64,000 bases of DNA from Singulisphaera sp. GP187 (GTDB taxonomy: Bacteria; Planctomycetota; GCA-002687715). Positions 5,518 to 16,741 of the stretch are shown one piece after another. Each line of letters opens with the position of its first letter. Within the stretch, counting starts at the first letter, position 1. Below the pieces are notes generated by a model. The model had not been told where the DNA came from and ran no database searches. It saw only the letters and a program-made list of their open reading frames with translations. The stretch spans positions 856-64,855 of the forward strand of contig CAMDTN010000007.1 of the NCBI GenBank assembly GCA_945907755.1, given 5' to 3'. A program made the translations under genes and the position numbers.

Positions 5518-7269
5518 TTAGAGATCCACCTGAGCGGCGAAGGGGTCTGTTGGGTCCGCTATCAGCGTTCCCGTGAGAGTGGCGCCAGAGGCGAAAACCA
5601 CAGTGACGCTGGCTCCGATGAGCGCCGCGCCGGTGCCGTTGGCGGGGATGATCTCGCAGTCCCAATCCAGCGCGTCGATGGTGGCTTCGAAGCTGTTGAA
5701 GGTGAAGTTCAATGTGCCATAGGCGGTTGCGGGCAGTCCGCCCACGGTCACCGGGAACGGATTAGTACCCGTGAACAGGCCCGGCGTCGGCCCGGTGAGC
5801 CCGGTGGTGAGCGCAGTGCCGTTGCGATACGAAGTGCCCGCAGCCAACGACCCGCCGCTGTTCAGCGCGCCGGAAGGGACGAGGCCGATGCCAGCGCCGA
5901 GTGGCATGCAGTTGATGGTCACCGAAGTAATGGCCTCACTGCCAGTGTTGCGGATCTCGTGAAAGCCAAAGACTTGGATGGCGCCAGAGCCGCGCGATTC
6001 GATATGTGCGTGAGGACCTGGTAACGCGTCCGCCCATCGCAGCGTGCACACATTCGAGCCACCGAAGAAGCCTGGGCTGCTTGGGTCCGGCGCGAGGAAT
6101 TGGAACGCGATGCGGTCTCCAGTGGCCAGCAAACCACCAGCGATGTTAGTGGAGATCAACGCTGGCGCCCCCGTGCCGGTGTAGCTGTAGGGCAGCACCA
6201 AGCCTGCAGCAATTCCCACCAAACTCAGCCCCAAGCTGTCCGGAACAATGAGCGCTAGCGGCTGCATCGGCACGCTGAAATTGTGGCCCAATTCCACCGC
6301 GGGGAAACCCGGTGTGACGCAGTTGGGGTTGGTGCCGCCGGGCCAAATATTGATGAGGCAACTGGCGCTCACGCCAGGCAGCGTCAAGCAGTCACCACCC
6401 CAAGAAATGAGTGTGCCCGCGGTGATGGTGCGCTGGATGCGCGCCGGGGCATCGGTGTTGATGCCCACCAGAGCCTCGTGATTATTCAGCGGAAAATCAC
6501 ACTCGAAGTAAGTGGTAGCTGGTGTGTTCGGTTGGCCTGATGGCCCGTTGCCAGCGGCTACGACGAGGTAGTCGGCTTGGATGTCCGCAGTGCTGCGCGC
6601 GTACGGGTAAACGCGGATGTCGTCGTAGTGCGCTTGCGCCGCCAGCGAAGACGAAGCGCGGTCACCCATGAAGTCGAGTTCGGTGCCATTCCAGTTGAAG
6701 CTGCCCGCGGTTTGCGGCACGCTCACCATCAAAGTGCCGTTCATGAACAAGGCGATGATGTTGGTTGCGGGGTCGAAGCGCACCGCGATGTGCACCCAGC
6801 CGTTCGCATTGACCATCGTGAGTAACGGTCCACCGGTGACTGCAACTTCGTTGGGTACGCCACGCAATGTTAGGCCTGCCGTGTTGGTGGGCGTGTAGGC
6901 CGGGCAATAACAGGCGCCGCTTTGAAACATGCGGAAGCGCCCGCCGCTGTAGCCCGCGATGGGCGACACCATGTTGCCGTCACCAAAGATGTACCCAAAA
7001 TTCTGCGCGGCCCAGGGACGGTAGTGGAACTGAATCGTGAAGCCGCCCGAGGGAATGAGCGTGAATCCCGTGGGCAGGTAGCTGAGGTTGGCGGCGGTAG
7101 AGGTGCGCACGGCGCAGCCGCCTCCGAGGAAAGGCACGGTGTAGTCGAGGCTGATGCCAGACCCAACGGTGGAGCGCACCAAGCTGGGAGGAGACAGCGC
7201 GGAATTGAGCAGGGCAACCTGACCATGAACCGAAGCCAAGAGCACCACCAATAGGCTGAAGCTGCGCAT
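5518..7269 (-). CDS. Secreted Gly/Thr/Ser/Pro-rich protein with a LamG/concanavalin-like N-terminal domain
   Basis: Signal peptide MRSFSLLVVLLASVHGQ. LamG-like motif (…FMGDRASSSL…YDDIRVYPYARSTADIQADY). Low-complexity G/T/S/P-rich remainder. AAGGTG Shine-Dalgarno before ATG 7269. Confidence 0.6.
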   Translation of the reverse strand: MRSFSLLVVLLASVHGQVALLNSALSPPSLVRSTVGSGISLDYTVPFLGGGCAVRTSTAANLSYLPTGFTLIPSGGFTIQFHYRPWAAQNFGYIFGDGNMVSPIAGYSGGRFRMFQSGACYCPAYTPTNTAGLTLRGVPNEVAVTGGPLLTMVNANGWVHIAVRFDPATNIIALFMNGTLMVSVPQTAGSFNWNGTELDFMGDRASSSLAAQAHYDDIRVYPYARSTADIQADYLVVAAGNGPSGQPNTPATTYFECDFPLNNHEALVGINTDAPARIQRTITAGTLISWGGDCLTLPGVSASCLINIWPGGTNPNCVTPGFPAVELGHNFSVPMQPLALIVPDSLGLSLVGIAAGLVLPYSYTGTGAPALISTNIAGGLLATGDRIAFQFLAPDPSSPGFFGGSNVCTLRWADALPGPHAHIESRGSGAIQVFGFHEIRNTGSEAITSVTINCMPLGAGIGLVPSGALNSGGSLAAGTSYRNGTALTTGLTGPTPGLFTGTNPFPVTVGGLPATAYGTLNFTFNSFEATIDALDWDCEIIPANGTGAALIGASVTVVFASGATLTGTLIADPTDPFAAQVDL

Positions 7270-7529
7270 GGAGTCACCTTAGTGCCCCAGCAGCTCTCGC
7301 GCGCACTCGTTTCTTGGATTTTCGTTCCGCGCACTCAGGAAGTGTGGAGACGGCGATCAAAAAATTGTGCGAGCACCCTTCACGGGCGAAATCTGCAGAG
7401 CCTGAAACCGCGCTTGACACGGGGCAAGTTCTTCTCGTATACATGGGAGGCCCGCTCCGCCGAGTGGGTTTGCTTGCTAGTAGCCAGACTTATGTCTAAC
7501 GCTCATAGCTTGCGTTCAAGGTCCTCGCT

Positions 7530-11515: not shown

Positions 11516-11670
11516 AGCCACATTCCCGTTCCTCGCGCCTACGCTGGGCCGCGCCTCCTGCTGCGCTGGGCCTCCAAATGGTCTCAGACCAGCGGACCCA
11601 TTGTTTTCAAAAAGTTAGATTTCGATAATATGGTCGGCGGCTGTTTTCACGGCCGCAAGTAAGGAAACCA

Positions 11671-12849
11671 ATGAGTGCACGCAGCAAGCGTCTACCGAAT
11701 GGCCGAAAAATCCGCTGCCCCAGCGGTTATCACGCCTATGTGCCGGCACCGCTGCCGCCGCACATCGCTTGGAATGCTGTGTTAGCAACGGCACTTTCGC
11801 GCGCAGACCGCGCCATTGGTCGACTCGCGGGAGAAGGTAGGCGTCTGGCAAATCCGCACATGCTCATTAGGCCATTCGTGCGGAGGGAGGCCGTGCTCTC
11901 CAGCCGCATCGAGGGCACTCAAGCAACCTTGGGGGAGCTGCTTGCCGCGGAGTCTGGGGCCATTGTTGATCGCAGTCCGGAAGATTTGCGCGAGGTCGGC
12001 AACTATGTGATTGCGTTGGAACATGGAGTTCGCCGGTTGTCTGCTTTGCCGCTTTCGTTGCGCCTCGTGAAGGAGCTTCATGAGAAGCTGATGCGAGGAG
12101 TGCGTGGCAACGCTGCGGCTCCAGGCGAATTCAGGCGAACTCAGAACTGGATTGGCCCAGGCGGATGCTCGCTCACAAACGCCACCTATGTGCCGCCGCC
12201 CGCCGACACGCTCGCCGACTGCCTTGGCGCGTGGGAGCTCTTCCTGCACGACGCAGCGTTGCCGCCGCTAGTGCATGCTGCGCTGGCGCATGCGCAGTTC
12301 GAGGCGATTCATCCGTTCCTTGATGGCAACGGGCGAGCGGGGCGCCTGCTCATCACCCTGCTGTTGGTGGAGAAGGAAGTTCTCCCTGCGCCGCTACTGT
12401 ATTTGAGCGCGTACTTCGAGGCCACGCGCCAAGAGTATTACGCACGGTTGCTTGCGATCACCGAGCGAGGCGAGTGGGAGGAATGGCTCGAGTACTTTCT
12501 GCGAGGCGTTGCTGAGCAGTCCGAAGACGCTCTCAGCCGGATTCAGAGAATTGAGGCGCGCTTGCTTGAGTGGCGCAAGCGCCTATCCACGCTATCCACA
12601 CGCTTGCCTGAGCGCGCATTGGACCTATTCGTCGAAAACCCCTACTGGACGGTGAACAAACTGGCAGAGAGGATGGAAGTGGCTTTCACGACCGCGCAGC
12701 GTGCGGTCGACCGGTTGGAGTCAGTTGGCGTTGTTGCGCTGACGGCCGAGACCAAGCGCAATCGGGTCTACTGCGCGCAGAGCATCCTCACCATTCTTGA
12801 AGAGCCGACACGGATGTCCGGAGCCAAGAACTCGCGCCGCGCTCGGTGA
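11671..12849 (+). CDS. Fic-family protein (class II, auto-inhibited AMPylator-type) with C-terminal winged-helix region
   Basis: Fic motif HPFLDGNGRAGR. Inhibitory-helix motif S/TxxxE(G/N) present as SSRIEGT. AAGGAA Shine-Dalgarno 6 nt before ATG 11671. Confidence 0.85.
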   Translation: MSARSKRLPNGRKIRCPSGYHAYVPAPLPPHIAWNAVLATALSRADRAIGRLAGEGRRLANPHMLIRPFVRREAVLSSRIEGTQATLGELLAAESGAIVDRSPEDLREVGNYVIALEHGVRRLSALPLSLRLVKELHEKLMRGVRGNAAAPGEFRRTQNWIGPGGCSLTNATYVPPPADTLADCLGAWELFLHDAALPPLVHAALAHAQFEAIHPFLDGNGRAGRLLITLLLVEKEVLPAPLLYLSAYFEATRQEYYARLLAITERGEWEEWLEYFLRGVAEQSEDALSRIQRIEARLLEWRKRLSTLSTRLPERALDLFVENPYWTVNKLAERMEVAFTTAQRAVDRLESVGVVALTAETKRNRVYCAQSILTILEEPTRMSGAKNSRRAR

Positions 12850-12931
12850 GCAGTGTTGGTAGCTGGCGCCAGAGCATTCGACGCGTCGCATGTCAACGAG
12901 CAGTGCATCGGGAGCGACGGTAGCTGGCGTA

Positions 12932-14671
12932 CTATTTAGGCAGAGTGAAGGACACGACGCGCACGCTGAGTGCGCCGGAGTTGTCGGTATGGCCATTGTC
13001 GTTGCAGCGGGCCATCAGGCTGCCACCAGGAGAAGGCGCTGCTTCATCATCCTGCCCACTGCAGAGAATCTGATTGTCCATCGACACGAGCAGTGCACCT
13101 GTTTTGTGGCCTGAGTACAGACAATAGTCACCCCAGCCGTCGAATCCTTCGACGCCACACGATCCGATAAATGTCCCAATGGTCCATGTCCCGCTTGCGC
13201 GGACAAAAATGTAGTCGCCCGCCTTGGCTGCGATGCCTAGCGCCTGCCACTCGCCGTTGGCATAAACGCTGACCGTTACATCACGCAATGAGGACCGCAT
13301 GGCATCTGCCTCGGCAGCAGCGTCTTTCAACTTGTGCCGTTTGGTGGCGAGGAAGGCTCTCGCATCGATCACGGCTGACTCTCCATGAAGGGTTGGCTGA
13401 CTTTCAAGGTGCGCTGACAAGTCATCGAGGAGCGGCGTAATCACGGTAGTAGCTTCGTCGACCTTTGAGCGCATGCTCACGACTGTCGCGACAACCTGCT
13501 TGACATCCCAAAAATCGTCACCTGTTGGCCTGAGCGCAGTCCAAACTCCGTCGAGTTTTCTCTCAGCCGATTCGAACCCTGTGGTGATACTTGCGCGTTT
13601 CTCACGGATCTTCTCAAGAAACGCTGTGGCATTGTGTGCCGTAGCCTTCTTGATGAAATCTGCATGGAGGGCATCCGCTTCAGCCGCGGTGTTCTTGAGT
13701 TTTTGCCTAGCGGATTCAATGAAGCTGCGTACAGCGGTCACGGGTGGCTCGTTGGAGTAGTCGGGTTGGTCAGCGATGAACGCGGCCAAGTCGTCGAGCA
13801 GCGGAGAGATGCGGCCCTGCCCATCAGCGATCTTGTCGCGCAGGTCTTTGAACGTAGCGACGATCTCATTCAGGTTCCCGACAGCGCCCTTGCCATCTTC
13901 TGCGAGCTTGCGCAGTGCATCCCAGCGGCGGTCGAGCGTTTCGATCTCTGCTGCGGTGGTGTTTCGCTTCTCGCCGAGTTTTCGAGCGAAGAGCGCGGGG
14001 TCAAGCACCTTCACAAGGACGGGAAACGCGGTGACTGGTGCGGTCCATACATGTTCTGCGGTGACTGTGAGGCGACCAGACAAGTCGCGAGAGATTTCGG
14101 CGGGATTGGCACCAACAAGGACCGTCGCAGGAGTGACACCACTGCGGGGCTCGATGGAAAGCCATGAATCCTCTGTGCTGATCTTCCAAGTGAGGCCGGG
14201 ATTGCCGGCGCTCTCGAGCACGAGCTTCGTCGTGGTCAGCGCGGTGTCACCCTTCCTCAGCGTGACTTCGATAGTGGCAGTCGGCGTCGCCCTCAGCTTC
14301 CCCAAGAGCGTGTACTGAATGGGCACAGCGATGCGCTGCTCGCCCGCTGTGAACGCGATGCTCGCAGTGTTCTGCCCGTAGGCGAGTGCAGCGACGAGGA
14401 ATGTGACGGTGATGCGAGCTGGCGTTCCACCTCTCGAATGACTGAGTTGCACAAAGGGTGCCGCGCAGCTTGCGGACCATTGCACGCTCTTTTCAGATGC
14501 TGAGCAATTGAGCTCGATGTCGATGCTTGTTGGTGGGACCACTGTGGAATCATCGAGGCGCCCTTCGTACTGGACTTTGTCCGCAGACAGCGTCAGCAGC
14601 AGCGGATCAGAGCAGCTCACCAAGCAGGCTGCCACACCCATGGCGAACGACATTCTCAAGAGTGTGTTCAT
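12932..14671 (-). CDS. Lipoprotein with N-terminal Ig-like domains, two ~90-aa internal helical repeats and a C-terminal PA-IL/LecA-like lectin domain
   Basis: Signal + lipobox (…GVAACLVSC). GGAGG Shine-Dalgarno 8 nt before ATG (complement of 14669–14671). C-terminal 110 aa align to Pseudomonas PA-IL (GALLVSMDN…/…CNDNGHTDNSGALSVRV versus GALVMKIGN…/…YNDVPGTYGNNSGSFSVNI). Two internal repeats (…ISPLLDDLAAFIADQP… / …ITPLLDDLSAHLESQP…). Confidence 0.7.
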   Translation of the reverse strand: MNTLLRMSFAMGVAACLVSCSDPLLLTLSADKVQYEGRLDDSTVVPPTSIDIELNCSASEKSVQWSASCAAPFVQLSHSRGGTPARITVTFLVAALAYGQNTASIAFTAGEQRIAVPIQYTLLGKLRATPTATIEVTLRKGDTALTTTKLVLESAGNPGLTWKISTEDSWLSIEPRSGVTPATVLVGANPAEISRDLSGRLTVTAEHVWTAPVTAFPVLVKVLDPALFARKLGEKRNTTAAEIETLDRRWDALRKLAEDGKGAVGNLNEIVATFKDLRDKIADGQGRISPLLDDLAAFIADQPDYSNEPPVTAVRSFIESARQKLKNTAAEADALHADFIKKATAHNATAFLEKIREKRASITTGFESAERKLDGVWTALRPTGDDFWDVKQVVATVVSMRSKVDEATTVITPLLDDLSAHLESQPTLHGESAVIDARAFLATKRHKLKDAAAEADAMRSSLRDVTVSVYANGEWQALGIAAKAGDYIFVRASGTWTIGTFIGSCGVEGFDGWGDYCLYSGHKTGALLVSMDNQILCSGQDDEAAPSPGGSLMARCNDNGHTDNSGALSVRVVSFTLPK

Positions 14672-14833
14672 GTGATCTACCTCCAATCTGGCGGATCTGT
14701 GCCAGATGCCTCGTTTCGGCCCCAGAGCATAGACGACCTGTAACGTGCAGAGGGGGGTAGCCCAAATGGGTTGGCATGGCCCCCGGGTGGCGGATTAGAA
14801 TCCCCCGTCACCACTTTGCAGCAGGAGCCCCCA

Positions 14834-16741
14834 ATGAAGTTTTCGAAGCGCGCGGTTTGCGCAGTGTTTGCCTTTGTTTGCAGCGCATCATTCTGTGGTG
14901 CTCAGATCTGGGTGCAGCAAGCGGGCGCCGTGCCGGGGCCCGTGACCATGACCGAAGGCTGCATCGCCGCAGACTTGGATGGGGACGGCGACAAGGATGT
15001 GCTTTTTGCTAACGGCTATGTGCTGAGCAGCGCTGGCAGCGCCGCGGTGTTGCCCACACTGTTGATCAACAAGTTCAACCTTGCGTTGGGTTTGGTGGAT
15101 GAAAGCGCTGCGCGCTTGCCGGCAACGCTGCTGAAGGCGACTCAAGTGATTGCGGTGGACATTGAGCGCGATGGAGATCTGGACCTTGTCATCACCTGCA
15201 ACGGACCCACCCAGCAGAGGCTTTATCTGAACAACGGCGTAGGCGTGTTCACTGATGTTTCGGTGGCGCGCTTGGGTGTGTTCAGCGCGGTGTGCAACTG
15301 CGCAGTGGCCGGCGATGTGGAACAAGACGGCGACCTCGACCTGTTCTTCAACGACGGCGCCACCAATGGGCAGTTGAAACTGTTCCTGAACAACGGGCTT
15401 GGCTTCTTCACCAACGTCACCGCGACACATGTTGCCGTTGCGCCCAAGACCAATCAGCAAGATGTGGTCCTTTGCGACATCGACAACGACTGGGACTTAG
15501 ATGTGGTGAACACCGGCAAGAGCGCCGGGCAACAGATTTTCTTCAACGACGGCACCGGGCACTTCACTGTGAACAGCGCATTGCTGCCGGCGGGAACCAC
15601 GTTGACTTACGAAACCGATGTGTGCGACTTGGATTCCGACGGCGACATGGACATGTGCTTTCTGTCCACTAGCGGCTTCACCGATGCCGTGTTGCGCAAC
15701 AATCTCATTCCCAGTGGCACTTTGAGTTTTACTGCCCAATCAACTTTCTTCACCGGCAGCAACGGTTTCGACGACAACGAGTTTGTTTACGCCGATTCCG
15801 ACAACGATGGCGACTTGGATGTTGTCATTGGTTCGCTGACGGCTACGCAAGAGCGTCTGTATGTGAACAACGGCGCCTTCAGTTTCGCGAACAGCACCAC
15901 GGGATTCTCAATGGTTTCTGATTCCACTTTGGATGTGGCCTGCGCAGACCTGAATAATGACGGCAAGCTAGACATGGTCACGGCGCAGGGAGAATCCGGC
16001 AATTTCTTGAACAGGCTGTATTTGGGCACAGTGCTCGACACACAGCCAGCGCGAGCGCTGCGGCTCCGCGGACCCGAGGGCGCACGGGCGGCGGGGGATT
16101 CGCGCCGAGTCCAAGTGGTCTTGCATGATTCGGCAGTTGACGACGGTGAAACCTCCGTGCGTTTGGTAAATCTCGTCGGCACAGTCACGCACCGCAGCGG
16201 CGTGGCGAGCTTCTCGGTGCCCATGACCATGATGGGTGGATTTCTGTGGAACGGCGAAGTGCCAATTCCAGGTGGCGTGGTGTTGATGGGCGCGAGTGTG
16301 AGTTGGTCGGTCAGCGTCACGGACCATGCTGGCAATGTGCTGGTCACTCCTGCGCGCAATTTCCATGTCTGCGGCGCAGAGGCTTACGGGCCAGGCGGCG
16401 TCGTTGGTGGTGTGAACGCGTTGAGCCTGAATGGCAGCGGCGCAACGGCGGGGCAGCAATTGATGCTGGCTTGGACTGGATTCCCACTGGACGCAGGGCT
16501 GCTCGTGCTGGCCGGGGAGCGCGGCGCACTGCCCTACTTCACCGGAACGATTCTTGTGGATCCTGCAACGATCATCGACTACTTCCCAGCTCTGTTCGAC
16601 GGCGCTGGTGTCGGCGGTTTGTCAGTGGGGCTGCCGCCGGGCCCTGCGCTCGCAGGCTTGCGCTTGGACTTGCAAGTGCTGCAAGTGTCCGCGGGCTCTG
16701 TGTTCCTCAGCAACGGCCTCGAACTCGTCATCTGTCCTTGA
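14834..16741 (+). CDS. Secreted FG-GAP/VCBS-repeat (integrin-alpha-like beta-propeller) protein with conserved C-terminal extension
   Basis: Signal peptide MKFSKRAVCAVFAFVCSASFCGAQ after GGAG. Multiple DxDGDGDxD FG-GAP repeats (DLDGDGDKDVLF, DIERDGDLDLVI, DVEQDGDLDLFF…). C-terminus shares a motif with three other secreted proteins in the window. Confidence 0.8.
   Translation: MKFSKRAVCAVFAFVCSASFCGAQIWVQQAGAVPGPVTMTEGCIAADLDGDGDKDVLFANGYVLSSAGSAAVLPTLLINKFNLALGLVDESAARLPATLLKATQVIAVDIERDGDLDLVITCNGPTQQRLYLNNGVGVFTDVSVARLGVFSAVCNCAVAGDVEQDGDLDLFFNDGATNGQLKLFLNNGLGFFTNVTATHVAVAPKTNQQDVVLCDIDNDWDLDVVNTGKSAGQQIFFNDGTGHFTVNSALLPAGTTLTYETDVCDLDSDGDMDMCFLSTSGFTDAVLRNNLIPSGTLSFTAQSTFFTGSNGFDDNEFVYADSDNDGDLDVVIGSLTATQERLYVNNGAFSFANSTTGFSMVSDSTLDVACADLNNDGKLDMVTAQGESGNFLNRLYLGTVLDTQPARALRLRGPEGARAAGDSRRVQVVLHDSAVDDGETSVRLVNLVGTVTHRSGVASFSVPMTMMGGFLWNGEVPIPGGVVLMGASVSWSVSVTDHAGNVLVTPARNFHVCGAEAYGPGGVVGGVNALSLNGSGATAGQQLMLAWTGFPLDAGLLVLAGERGALPYFTGTILVDPATIIDYFPALFDGAGVGGLSVGLPPGPALAGLRLDLQVLQVSAGSVFLSNGLELVICP

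Follow-up and report, generated by a model that had tools for sequence, protein, structure and literature searches.

A predicted planctomycete lipoprotein with a divergent LecA-fold domain and hypervariable pocket-equivalent loops

What might a planctomycete do with a lipoprotein that ends in a relative of LecA (PA-IL), the galactophilic lectin of Pseudomonas aeruginosa, and what would such a protein bind? The question is posed by a gene on the minus strand of a 64,000-nucleotide stretch of Singulisphaera sp. GP187 DNA (assembly GCA_945907755.1, contig CAMDTN010000007.1, positions 856 to 64,855 of the forward strand; the window in what follows), whose product had been described in an earlier note, written from the sequence alone, as a surface-anchored adhesin with Ig-like N-terminal domains, two helical repeats and a galactophilic C-terminal domain. 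The gene lies within an uninterrupted open reading frame (ORF; 12932..14686, minus strand, in the ORF listing of the window), its start ATG at 14671 yields a 579-aa product with the same boundaries as in that description, and the exact protein is present in 6 public contigs. The gene and the domain that raises the question are:

12932..14671, minus strand: complete lipoprotein gene, 579 aa plus a stop codon at 12932-12934 (ORF listing and translation)
12935..13285, minus strand: predicted PA-IL/LecA-fold lectin-type domain (aa 463-579; relatives, family profile against the PDB, hhalign, structure model and Foldseek)

At the level of single sequences, the kinship of the C-terminal domain is easily missed. 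BLASTP against LecA returns an E value of 0.13, a pairwise similarity that is not significant alone, and single-sequence queries yield neither a PA-IL match in NCBIfam nor, with phmmer, any match among the PDB sequences. The alignment to LecA that the earlier note had called convincing is thus not so in pairwise terms, but the homology it was meant to convey holds, and the LecA-like motifs quoted there do exist in the sequence. When 1.84 billion representative sequences are searched by phmmer, the 117-aa C-terminus as query recovers 188 clusters at E ≤ 1e-3, 31 of them at E ≤ 1e-10, a breadth at odds with the former view that the fold is uncommon outside a few gamma-proteobacteria, and 25 of the 99 relatives scanned match the Pfam PA-IL family (PF07828; best E 1.6e-21). 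Queried against the whole PDB, a family profile made from an alignment of 54 matched segments of relatives (A2) retrieves PA-IL lectins only, namely LecA (3.7e-11), PllA of Photorhabdus luminescens (4.7e-10), the N-terminal domain of Enterobacter cloacae EclA (EclA-N; 7.6e-9) and a further PA-IL entry (1.1e-8), with matches that cover positions 7-110 of 115, and hhalign aligns A2 with LecA at a probability of 97% (E 9.8e-11). The numbering of the LecA sequence used for BLASTP and hhalign agrees with the published residue names (PMC9321714) and with the PDB sequence that was aligned.

Structure prediction leads to the same family. An AlphaFold2 model of the domain computed from the A2 alignment has a predicted local distance difference test (pLDDT) score of 95.5 and a predicted template-modelling (pTM) score of 0.88, and the top 11 Foldseek matches to it in the PDB are LecA, PllA and EclA-N structures (template-modelling (TM) scores of 0.71-0.84, best root-mean-square deviation 2.1 Å), with the next fold at a TM score of only 0.42, while sequence identity to LecA is about 22-25%. 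Based on the family-profile matches, the hhalign result and the structure model, we consider the PA-IL assignment of the earlier note correct, and homology of the C-terminal domain to PA-IL/LecA, with the same fold, as close to certain as profile and model comparisons allow. Judged by the same comparisons, the domain is a divergent branch or subfamily beyond the reach of the Pfam PA-IL model. Further surveys extended the picture little: a word-indexed homologue search returned the 97% allele only, to which the family alignment added nothing, and neither a genome-collection scan with the protein query nor a scan of JGI metagenomes gave a match. A phage origin of the fold was considered and rejected, the matches in BFVD reaching TM scores of 0.5 at most and phrog_29351 matching only weakly.

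The top conserved feature of the family reads V.A...W..TG..V..GD.....A.G.W..G...G..GP.G, followed by G.L..R.G and by RCND....(D/N)NSG...V, the last part of which holds a predicted Ca2+-binding motif. This motif and the allelically variable loops that map to the LecA sugar pocket are:

12974..13003, minus strand: predicted Ca2+-binding motif N557-D558-N-G-H-T-D563-N564-S-G566 (family conservation and residue map)
13166..13180, minus strand: variable pocket loop 1 (aa 498-502; 498 and 500 correspond to LecA Y36 and P38; alleles and residue map)
13121..13138, minus strand: variable pocket loop 2 (aa 512-517; 512-515 correspond to LecA E49, H50, D52 and Q53; alleles and residue map)
12986..12997, minus strand: variable pocket loop 3 (aa 559-562, within the Ca loop; 559, 560 and 562 correspond to LecA G103, T104 and G106; alleles and residue map)

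With LecA and the window domain both aligned to the family hidden Markov model, residues D558, D563 and N564 fall on LecA D100, N107 and N108, the last of which we take to be a further Ca ligand in LecA. The triad is near-invariant in the family and invariant among the five alleles described below, a looser form of the ND....(D/N)NSG motif is kept in 109 of 123 relatives, and a Ca2+ site in the lectin domain is likely on the evidence of this conservation. The cysteines of GSCG and RCND, C505 and C556 in the window protein and near-invariant within the subfamily, could possibly pair in a disulfide. Which sugar such a site might hold is a separate matter. D100 and N107 of LecA lie at its Ca2+/galactose site, and its His50 and Gln53 contact the galactose O6 (PMC9321714); in EclA-N the Ca site, formed by D114, D121 and N122, is intact, the galactose residues are not conserved and there is no known carbohydrate ligand (PMC11875179). 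In the window protein the positions of His50 and Gln53 are taken by W513 and D515, both of them polymorphic (W/T and D/E), and given the EclA-N precedent a specificity for galactose can therefore not be inferred, which removes the ground for the earlier label galactophilic.

The allelic variation bears directly on these positions. Five haplotypes from independent assemblies, comprising the exact window protein and four variants 97-99% identical to it, were compared as DNA together with up to 6 kb of flanking sequence, in which eight genes served for comparison. The lipoprotein gene has 26 polymorphic codons, 25 of which change the amino acid and one of which is silent, as opposed to 27 amino acid-changing and 101 silent codons in the eight flanking genes (Fisher p = 2.5e-13). 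A single silent change among 30 segregating nucleotides also departs from the neutral expectation for 24.8% synonymous sites (P = 0.002), the pairwise omega between the window haplotype and L001 is about 6.9, and the changes at codon positions 1, 2 and 3 number 17, 9 and 4, respectively. A frame artefact or an antisense gene behind this pattern can be rejected, as no other reading frame renders the changes silent; nor did two further assemblies that carry the window allele reveal hidden silent variation, both being identical in DNA across the gene. The variable residues cluster in the lectin domain, with 15 of 25 located in its 117 residues and 10 in the other 462 (p = 9e-6), and within the domain they cluster again, with 10 of 15 pocket-equivalent loop positions varying versus 5 of 102 positions elsewhere (p = 8e-8). 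These observations point to strong diversifying selection on the lipoprotein gene, centred on the loops equivalent to the LecA pocket.

How this domain is connected to the cell can be read in part from the remaining 462 residues. These and the sequence just 5' of the ATG contain the following elements:

14680..14684, minus strand: Shine-Dalgarno-like GGAGG, 8 nt 5' of the ATG (read from the sequence)
14612..14671, minus strand: predicted signal peptide and lipobox LVSC, with Cys20 the predicted lipidated residue (sequence and Cys alignment)
14300..14596, minus strand: predicted Ig-like beta-sandwich 1 (aa 26-124), BACON-like (model pLDDT about 90, Foldseek, homology to the Ig modules of relatives P0003 and P0041)
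14003..14296, minus strand: predicted Ig-like beta-sandwich 2 (aa 126-223), with sub-threshold BACON/BACON_2 scores (model pLDDT about 90, Pfam scores)
13637..13996, minus strand: predicted helical unit 1 (aa 226-345), containing ISPLLDDLAAFIADQPDY (internal repeat, predicted helices)
13286..13636, minus strand: predicted helical unit 2 (aa 346-462), containing ITPLLDDLSAHLESQP (repeat and model; every family member has this unit immediately in front of its lectin domain)

The N-terminus reads MNTLLRMSFAMGVAACLVSC, followed by SD, and combines a short n-region that has one basic residue, a hydrophobic core 12 residues long and the lipobox L-V-S-C20, which by pattern test only agrees with [LVI][ASTVI][GAS]C. 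Cys20 aligns with the lipobox cysteine of at least nine family members, among them P0017, P0036, P0020, P0094 and P0023. The lipoprotein signal recognised earlier is thus seen both in the motif and in a cysteine position kept across the family, and the lipobox suggests that Cys20 would be lipidated. A full-length model computed from 20 sequences of the family (mean pLDDT 80, pTM 0.45) leaves the signal peptide disordered, residues 1-21 having a pLDDT below 50, and shows the PA-IL sandwich; the Ig-like domains anticipated by the earlier note appear in it as the two beta-sandwiches listed above. In a Foldseek search of the PDB, the pair resembles tandem Ig-like folds of a generic kind. In Pfam, residues 128-207 come closest to BACON (PF13004, 22.7 bits) and BACON_2 (PF19190, 19.7-21.5 bits), both below the cut-off of 25, while the homologous module of P0003 scores above the cut-off for BACON_2 (33.4 bits) and five relatives match, with a best E value of 3.9e-12.

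The helical region is built from an internal repeat, residues ~228-340 aligning to residues ~351-465 with 36% identity over 114 aa (E 3e-22), so that the tandem repeat proposed earlier is real but its units measure about 115-120 aa and not about 90. The full-length model predicts helices at residues 225-259, 267-300, 309-380, 390-423 and 432-460, the third of which spans the boundary of the two units in a spectrin-like manner, with pLDDT values of 55-80. The units carry the signature LDDLxAFLxQNxxYxExLxFxxVR. They match no curated family, and the hits of a profile made from 18 units are all generic helical proteins (MCP, spectrin, apolipoprotein). The spectrin repeat itself (PF00435), a three-helix unit of about 106 aa whose final helix runs on into its successor, scores 18.9 bits against a cut-off of 29.9, over 28 residues, with weak matches in 2 of the 18 units (best E 3.6e-4), and was set aside as a resemblance only. 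Polymorphisms in the helical units fall at equivalent positions, residue 264 (13880-13882) in the first and residues 388/389 (13505-13510) in the second, V264 aligning with F387, beside W388 and D389; as these residues lie in the loop between helix 1 and helix 2 of each unit, that loop may be exposed too.

Local searches among the fetched relatives place this architecture within a small family whose members differ in how many of the modules they have. An Ig pair with one or more helical units and a PA-IL domain is found in P0041, P0094, P0020, P0017, P0036, P0053 and P0023, three Ig modules with one helical unit and a PA-IL domain in P0003, and a helical unit with a PA-IL domain only in P0004, P0006, P0008-P0010, P0012 and P0016. 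Many family members, including most full-length ones, start with a lipobox, and from this survey the conserved core would be a lipid anchor, a helical unit and a PA-IL head, with the Ig modules as optional extensions. Where public names are given they read "hypothetical protein", one of them from "Planctomycetes bacterium". Among 123 distant relatives the PA-IL domain is C-terminal in 91 and tandem in 31, and it is fused to HtrA/trypsin-like, caspase-like or M60-like peptidases, FG-GAP repeats, type IX secretion system (T9SS) tails and other modules, a pattern that fits a binding or targeting module. Tandem PA-IL-like relatives include P0002, P0005 and P0019, with 3 to 5 full copies, and P0013 (3266 aa) and P0015 (4482 aa), with 13 matched stretches each; these would be multivalent lectin-like proteins that arose through internal duplication.

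We propose that the product is a lipoprotein lectin anchored in the cell envelope, held out on a stalk and dependent on Ca2+, with specificity loops under diversifying selection, and we give this whole chain of inference a probability of roughly 0.6. The signal peptide would be cleaved and Cys20 lipidated, with the outer membrane or cell surface as the most likely location. The two BACON-like Ig domains and two helical units of ~115 aa would act as a spacer, in which the helical units may also drive oligomerisation, and would present the C-terminal PA-IL/LecA-fold beta-sandwich outward. The D558/D563/N564 triad, which in LecA, PllA and EclA-N holds the sugar-coordinating Ca2+, is kept, and Ca2+-mediated glycan binding, through a Ca2+-bridged hydroxyl pair, is for that reason most likely. 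Specificity would be set by loops 498-502, 512-517 and 559-562, the counterparts of the LecA Y36, H50-Q53 and D100-N107 loops, and since these differ from LecA the ligand need not be galactose. Positive, diversifying selection would then remodel the pocket loops but leave the scaffold and the Ca ligands unchanged, which suggests that the protein interacts with something that itself varies. Candidates are glycans on other organisms or on particles to which the cell attaches or, alternatively, phages or predators that grip the exposed protein. Of the earlier description as a surface-anchored adhesin, the lipobox, the modules and the LecA fold are confirmed, and they are most simply read as parts of a surface-displayed protein that binds carbohydrate.

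Several points weigh against this proposal. PF07828 gives no match at E ≤ 10 with either the whole protein or the isolated C-terminal 118 aa, so that the Pfam check suggested in the earlier note comes back empty on the sequence itself, a null result overturned by the family profile and the structure model. The Ca loop is 2 residues shorter than that of LecA, the two galactose contacts of LecA are replaced and polymorphic, and since EclA-N has no known ligand despite its Ca site, sugar binding by a PA-IL domain is not guaranteed. The stalk geometry is one we infer, given the pLDDT of 55-80 in the helical units and the whole-protein pTM of 0.45, and the sequence does not tell a surface location from a periplasmic one. 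The selection signal comes from five haplotypes only, a single divergent allele (P0001) is involved in 13 of the 15 changes in the lectin domain, and the set of pocket-loop positions, although taken from the published contact residues of LecA, was defined after seeing the data. Finally, P0020 is invariant across 36 contigs, and hypervariability is therefore not general in the family.

The main rival concerns the cause of the variation and is compatible with a Ca2+-dependent surface lectin: hypervariability could reflect escape from phages or predators that recognise the lectin head, the protein's own ligand being constant or sugar binding being absent. The excess of non-synonymous over synonymous change is indeed concentrated on the most exposed tip loops, the helix-helix loops (264 and 388/389) and other parts of the stalk have non-synonymous changes as well, and the conserved Ca ligands are as expected under retained function. 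However, the changes lie exactly on the equivalents of LecA sugar contacts, a placement that altered specificity would explain no less well, and there is neither direct evidence of phage interaction nor a convincing phage counterpart of the fold. We regard escape as the sole cause as unlikely, though deserving of attention. Less likely again is a broader scenario of a hypervariable surface lectin in a phage-host or predator-prey arms race, acting as a phage-exploited receptor or as the glycan shield or sensor of a defence island; if true, it would mean that receptor sites on a PA-IL scaffold can diversify by a route other than a diversity-generating retroelement (DGR), with the loops re-specified and the Ca2+ core fixed.

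A galactose-specific LecA-type adhesin, binding alpha-galactosides via Ca2+ and the equivalents of His50 and Gln53, would share its fold and Ca-ligand triad with LecA, yet those two equivalents are W513 and D515, which vary between alleles, and the Ca loop is shortened. EclA-N shows that a PA-IL domain without His50 and Gln53 need not bind galactose (PMC11875179), and LecA itself is a single-domain soluble tetramer, highly conserved among strains (PMC9321714); we consider this explanation improbable. We give no greater weight to a role outside carbohydrate recognition, in which the PA-IL domain would have a structural Ca2+ site or bind protein or cell wall, and the Ig and helical modules would form a strut spanning the periplasm. 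EclA-N, without a known glycan ligand (PMC11875179), is a precedent for it, a periplasmic location is compatible with the sequence, and in some relatives the domain is joined to HtrA-type periplasmic proteases. On the other hand, the best-conserved feature of the family is the very motif that coordinates sugar via Ca in LecA, the BACON-like modules, T9SS tails and M60-like partners of relatives suggest surface or glycan contexts, and strong diversifying selection would be unusual for a periplasmic structural protein.

A link to anti-phage defence has to be weighed because of the gene that meets the lipoprotein gene tail to tail:

11671..12849, plus strand: predicted convergent class II Fic protein with a C-terminal winged helix-turn-helix, SoFic-like (Pfam Fic_N and Fic; PADLOC SoFic)

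The two genes are convergent, with an 82-nt spacer, and the Fic motif HPFLDGNGRAGR, of the form HxFx(D/E)GNGRxxR, together with an N-terminal SSRIEG inhibitory motif places the protein in class II, in line with the earlier description of this neighbour. It matches PADLOC SoFic nearly end to end (E 2e-118, positions 5-359 of 361) and phrog_5978 at E 2.8e-81, and scores 172.7 bits against the NCBIfam SoFic equivalog, whose cut-off is 550. The lipoprotein could thus be imagined to act with the SoFic-like protein, or with defence islands, against phage by shielding or modifying glycans or by sensing attachment. Besides the SoFic match, the arms-race-like selection on the lipoprotein gene would suit such a role, as would the setting of P0020 (L042/L043, 1-13422), which lies between TerB_N-TerB-TerB_C, BrxC/BrxD-like ATPase and DEAD helicase genes on one side and one or two IS1595 elements, a helix-turn-helix gene and SNIPE/T5orf172 genes on the other, a context that by its gene content looks like a defence or mobile island. 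Against it, the convergent genes cannot form one operon, the lipoprotein matches no defence model beyond coiled-coil noise, the other neighbours in the window are housekeeping genes, and no Fic gene adjoins the lipoprotein gene in the five further members of the family that were looked at, two of which lie on short contigs. P0003 lies on a 3-kb contig without Fic among its called genes, the genes around P0017 are all without Pfam matches, P0036 adjoins AtuA and a secretin gene, and P0041 adjoins an M48 peptidase gene. As these contexts vary and all lack Fic, the adjacency is probably incidental; a functional link drawn from adjacency is not supported, Fic not being a conserved partner, and we judge a joint role in defence very unlikely. 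Targeted mutagenesis by a DGR or a similar mechanism, which the clustering of changes near the 3' end of the gene, in the ligand-binding domain and mostly at codon positions 1 and 2, might recall, is largely refuted by the absence of a template repeat of 12932-13300 in the window (chance matches of ≤ 13 nt only), of a reverse-transcriptase motif in any window frame and of a reverse-transcriptase gene in 13.7 kb of sister contigs, by substitutions without an adenine-specific pattern and by variable sites spread over 1.5 kb of the gene.

The wider neighbourhood adds a number of observations. The Fic gene and the 82-nt spacer (11615-12942) contain one segregating site among the five haplotypes, while flanking genes have ~7-21 silent polymorphic codons per kb; this low diversity could reflect a local sweep or a recent transfer of the segment. 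Between the two convergent stop codons, the spacer (12850-12931) holds the 11-mer GGTAGCTGGCG twice as a direct repeat, and its folding (z = -0.39) reveals no terminator-like structure that stands out. Around the lipoprotein gene no promoter-like site was found, and the one terminator-like site is intragenic, with no excess over shuffled sequences. In freshwater Planctomycetia/Planctomycetota loci from metagenome-assembled genomes, the ABC-F neighbour has counterparts up to 80% identical (partial) and 72-77% identical for the closest full-length ones, and in 36 of 36 planctomycete loci the lipoprotein, Fic and FG-GAP genes are absent beside it. This identity marks the source as a freshwater planctomycete and not as a gamma-proteobacterium. 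Polysaccharide-utilisation genes flank neither the lipoprotein gene nor the family members examined. On its upstream side the lipoprotein gene is divergent from another predicted secreted protein:

14834..16741, plus strand: predicted divergent secreted FG-GAP/VCBS-repeat protein, 635 aa in sister contigs (Pfam FG-GAP_3, E 5.6e-33)

This neighbour is under purifying selection, with 2 amino acid-changing and 30 silent codons. Three distant relatives with PA-IL domains carry FG-GAP_2 repeats within the same polypeptide (best E 2.5e-61), and the sequences thus offer a weak hint that the lipoprotein and the FG-GAP protein may be functionally associated. Nine segregating sites fall within ~125 nt at 14742-14866, in the intergenic region between the divergent lipoprotein and FG-GAP genes and the first FG-GAP codons. 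A second hot spot at 7000-7499 has 67 segregating sites in 500 nt, mainly owing to L040 (91% identity, with indels) and L041 (98.5%); it corresponds to the start region of a minus-strand ORF (5518-7269) that encodes a Laminin_G_3 protein in sister contigs, and is thus in or near the gene for another predicted lectin-like (LamG) protein.

Two of the closest known parallels come from outside the PA-IL family. BACON surface lipoproteins of Bacteroidota start with a lipobox, behind which BACON-type Ig modules space a C-terminal functional module from the membrane. The window protein has a comparable layout with BACON-like modules, whose scores lie below the Pfam cut-off, and it differs in having a PA-IL head and a planctomycete host, where the Bacteroidota proteins have a glycoside hydrolase or a SusE/F-type binder as their head. 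Diversified binding sites are known from DGR targets such as Bordetella phage Mtd and from pathoadaptive FimH. As in the window protein, amino acid variation there falls in ligand-binding loops on a stable scaffold, but the folds are those of C-type lectins or of the FimH lectin, whereas here the fold is PA-IL, no DGR machinery was found in the window or the sister contigs and the variation lies between environmental planctomycete strains.

Within the PA-IL family, PllA (PDB 5ODU, 5OFZ) shares the fold and the Ca motif (profile E 4.7e-10, TM score 0.77), yet this lectin of an insect pathogen binds alpha-galactosides and consists of a single domain, without stalk or anchor. LecA (PDB 1L7L, 1OKO, 2VXJ, 4CP9) has the same jelly-roll beta-sandwich (TM score up to 0.84, with profile homology over the whole domain) and shares with the window domain the motifs GD..I..A.G and ND....(D/N)NSG..V. 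It is, however, a 121-aa single-domain protein, soluble, tetrameric and galactophilic, whereas the window domain is the C-terminal head of a 579-aa predicted lipoprotein, and LecA is highly conserved among strains (PMC9321714), unlike the hypervariable pocket loops described here. EclA (PDB 6YGQ; PMC11875179), the top Foldseek match, resembles the window protein in joining a PA-IL domain to a second module, in the D...DN pattern of its Ca ligands and in galactose contacts that are not conserved; in contrast, it is a soluble two-domain protein with an N-terminal PA-IL and a fucose-binding C-terminal domain, and has no lipid anchor, Ig or helical modules. EclA was described as the first LecA domain fused to another domain (PMC11875179), and we found no literature on an architecture of lipobox, BACON-like Ig, helical unit and PA-IL domain. 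Fold and family are thus already known, while this architecture and its planctomycete setting have not previously been described and the population signature in the pocket loops is new.

Almost all work on PA-IL/LecA has dealt with it as a small, soluble lectin that serves a few gamma-proteobacterial pathogens in virulence. At this locus, in environmental Planctomycetota, the Ca2+-site-bearing fold forms the head of a predicted modular lipoprotein, and the domain proves to be widespread and to occur in many architectures. Five near-identical strains that differ mostly at the equivalents of LecA sugar contacts amount to a natural experiment, which predicts allele-specific glycan specificities. 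If confirmed, these alleles would be naturally re-engineered PA-IL binding sites, potentially useful in lectin engineering, and would provide a handle on how planctomycetes recognise partners, surfaces and enemies in lakes.

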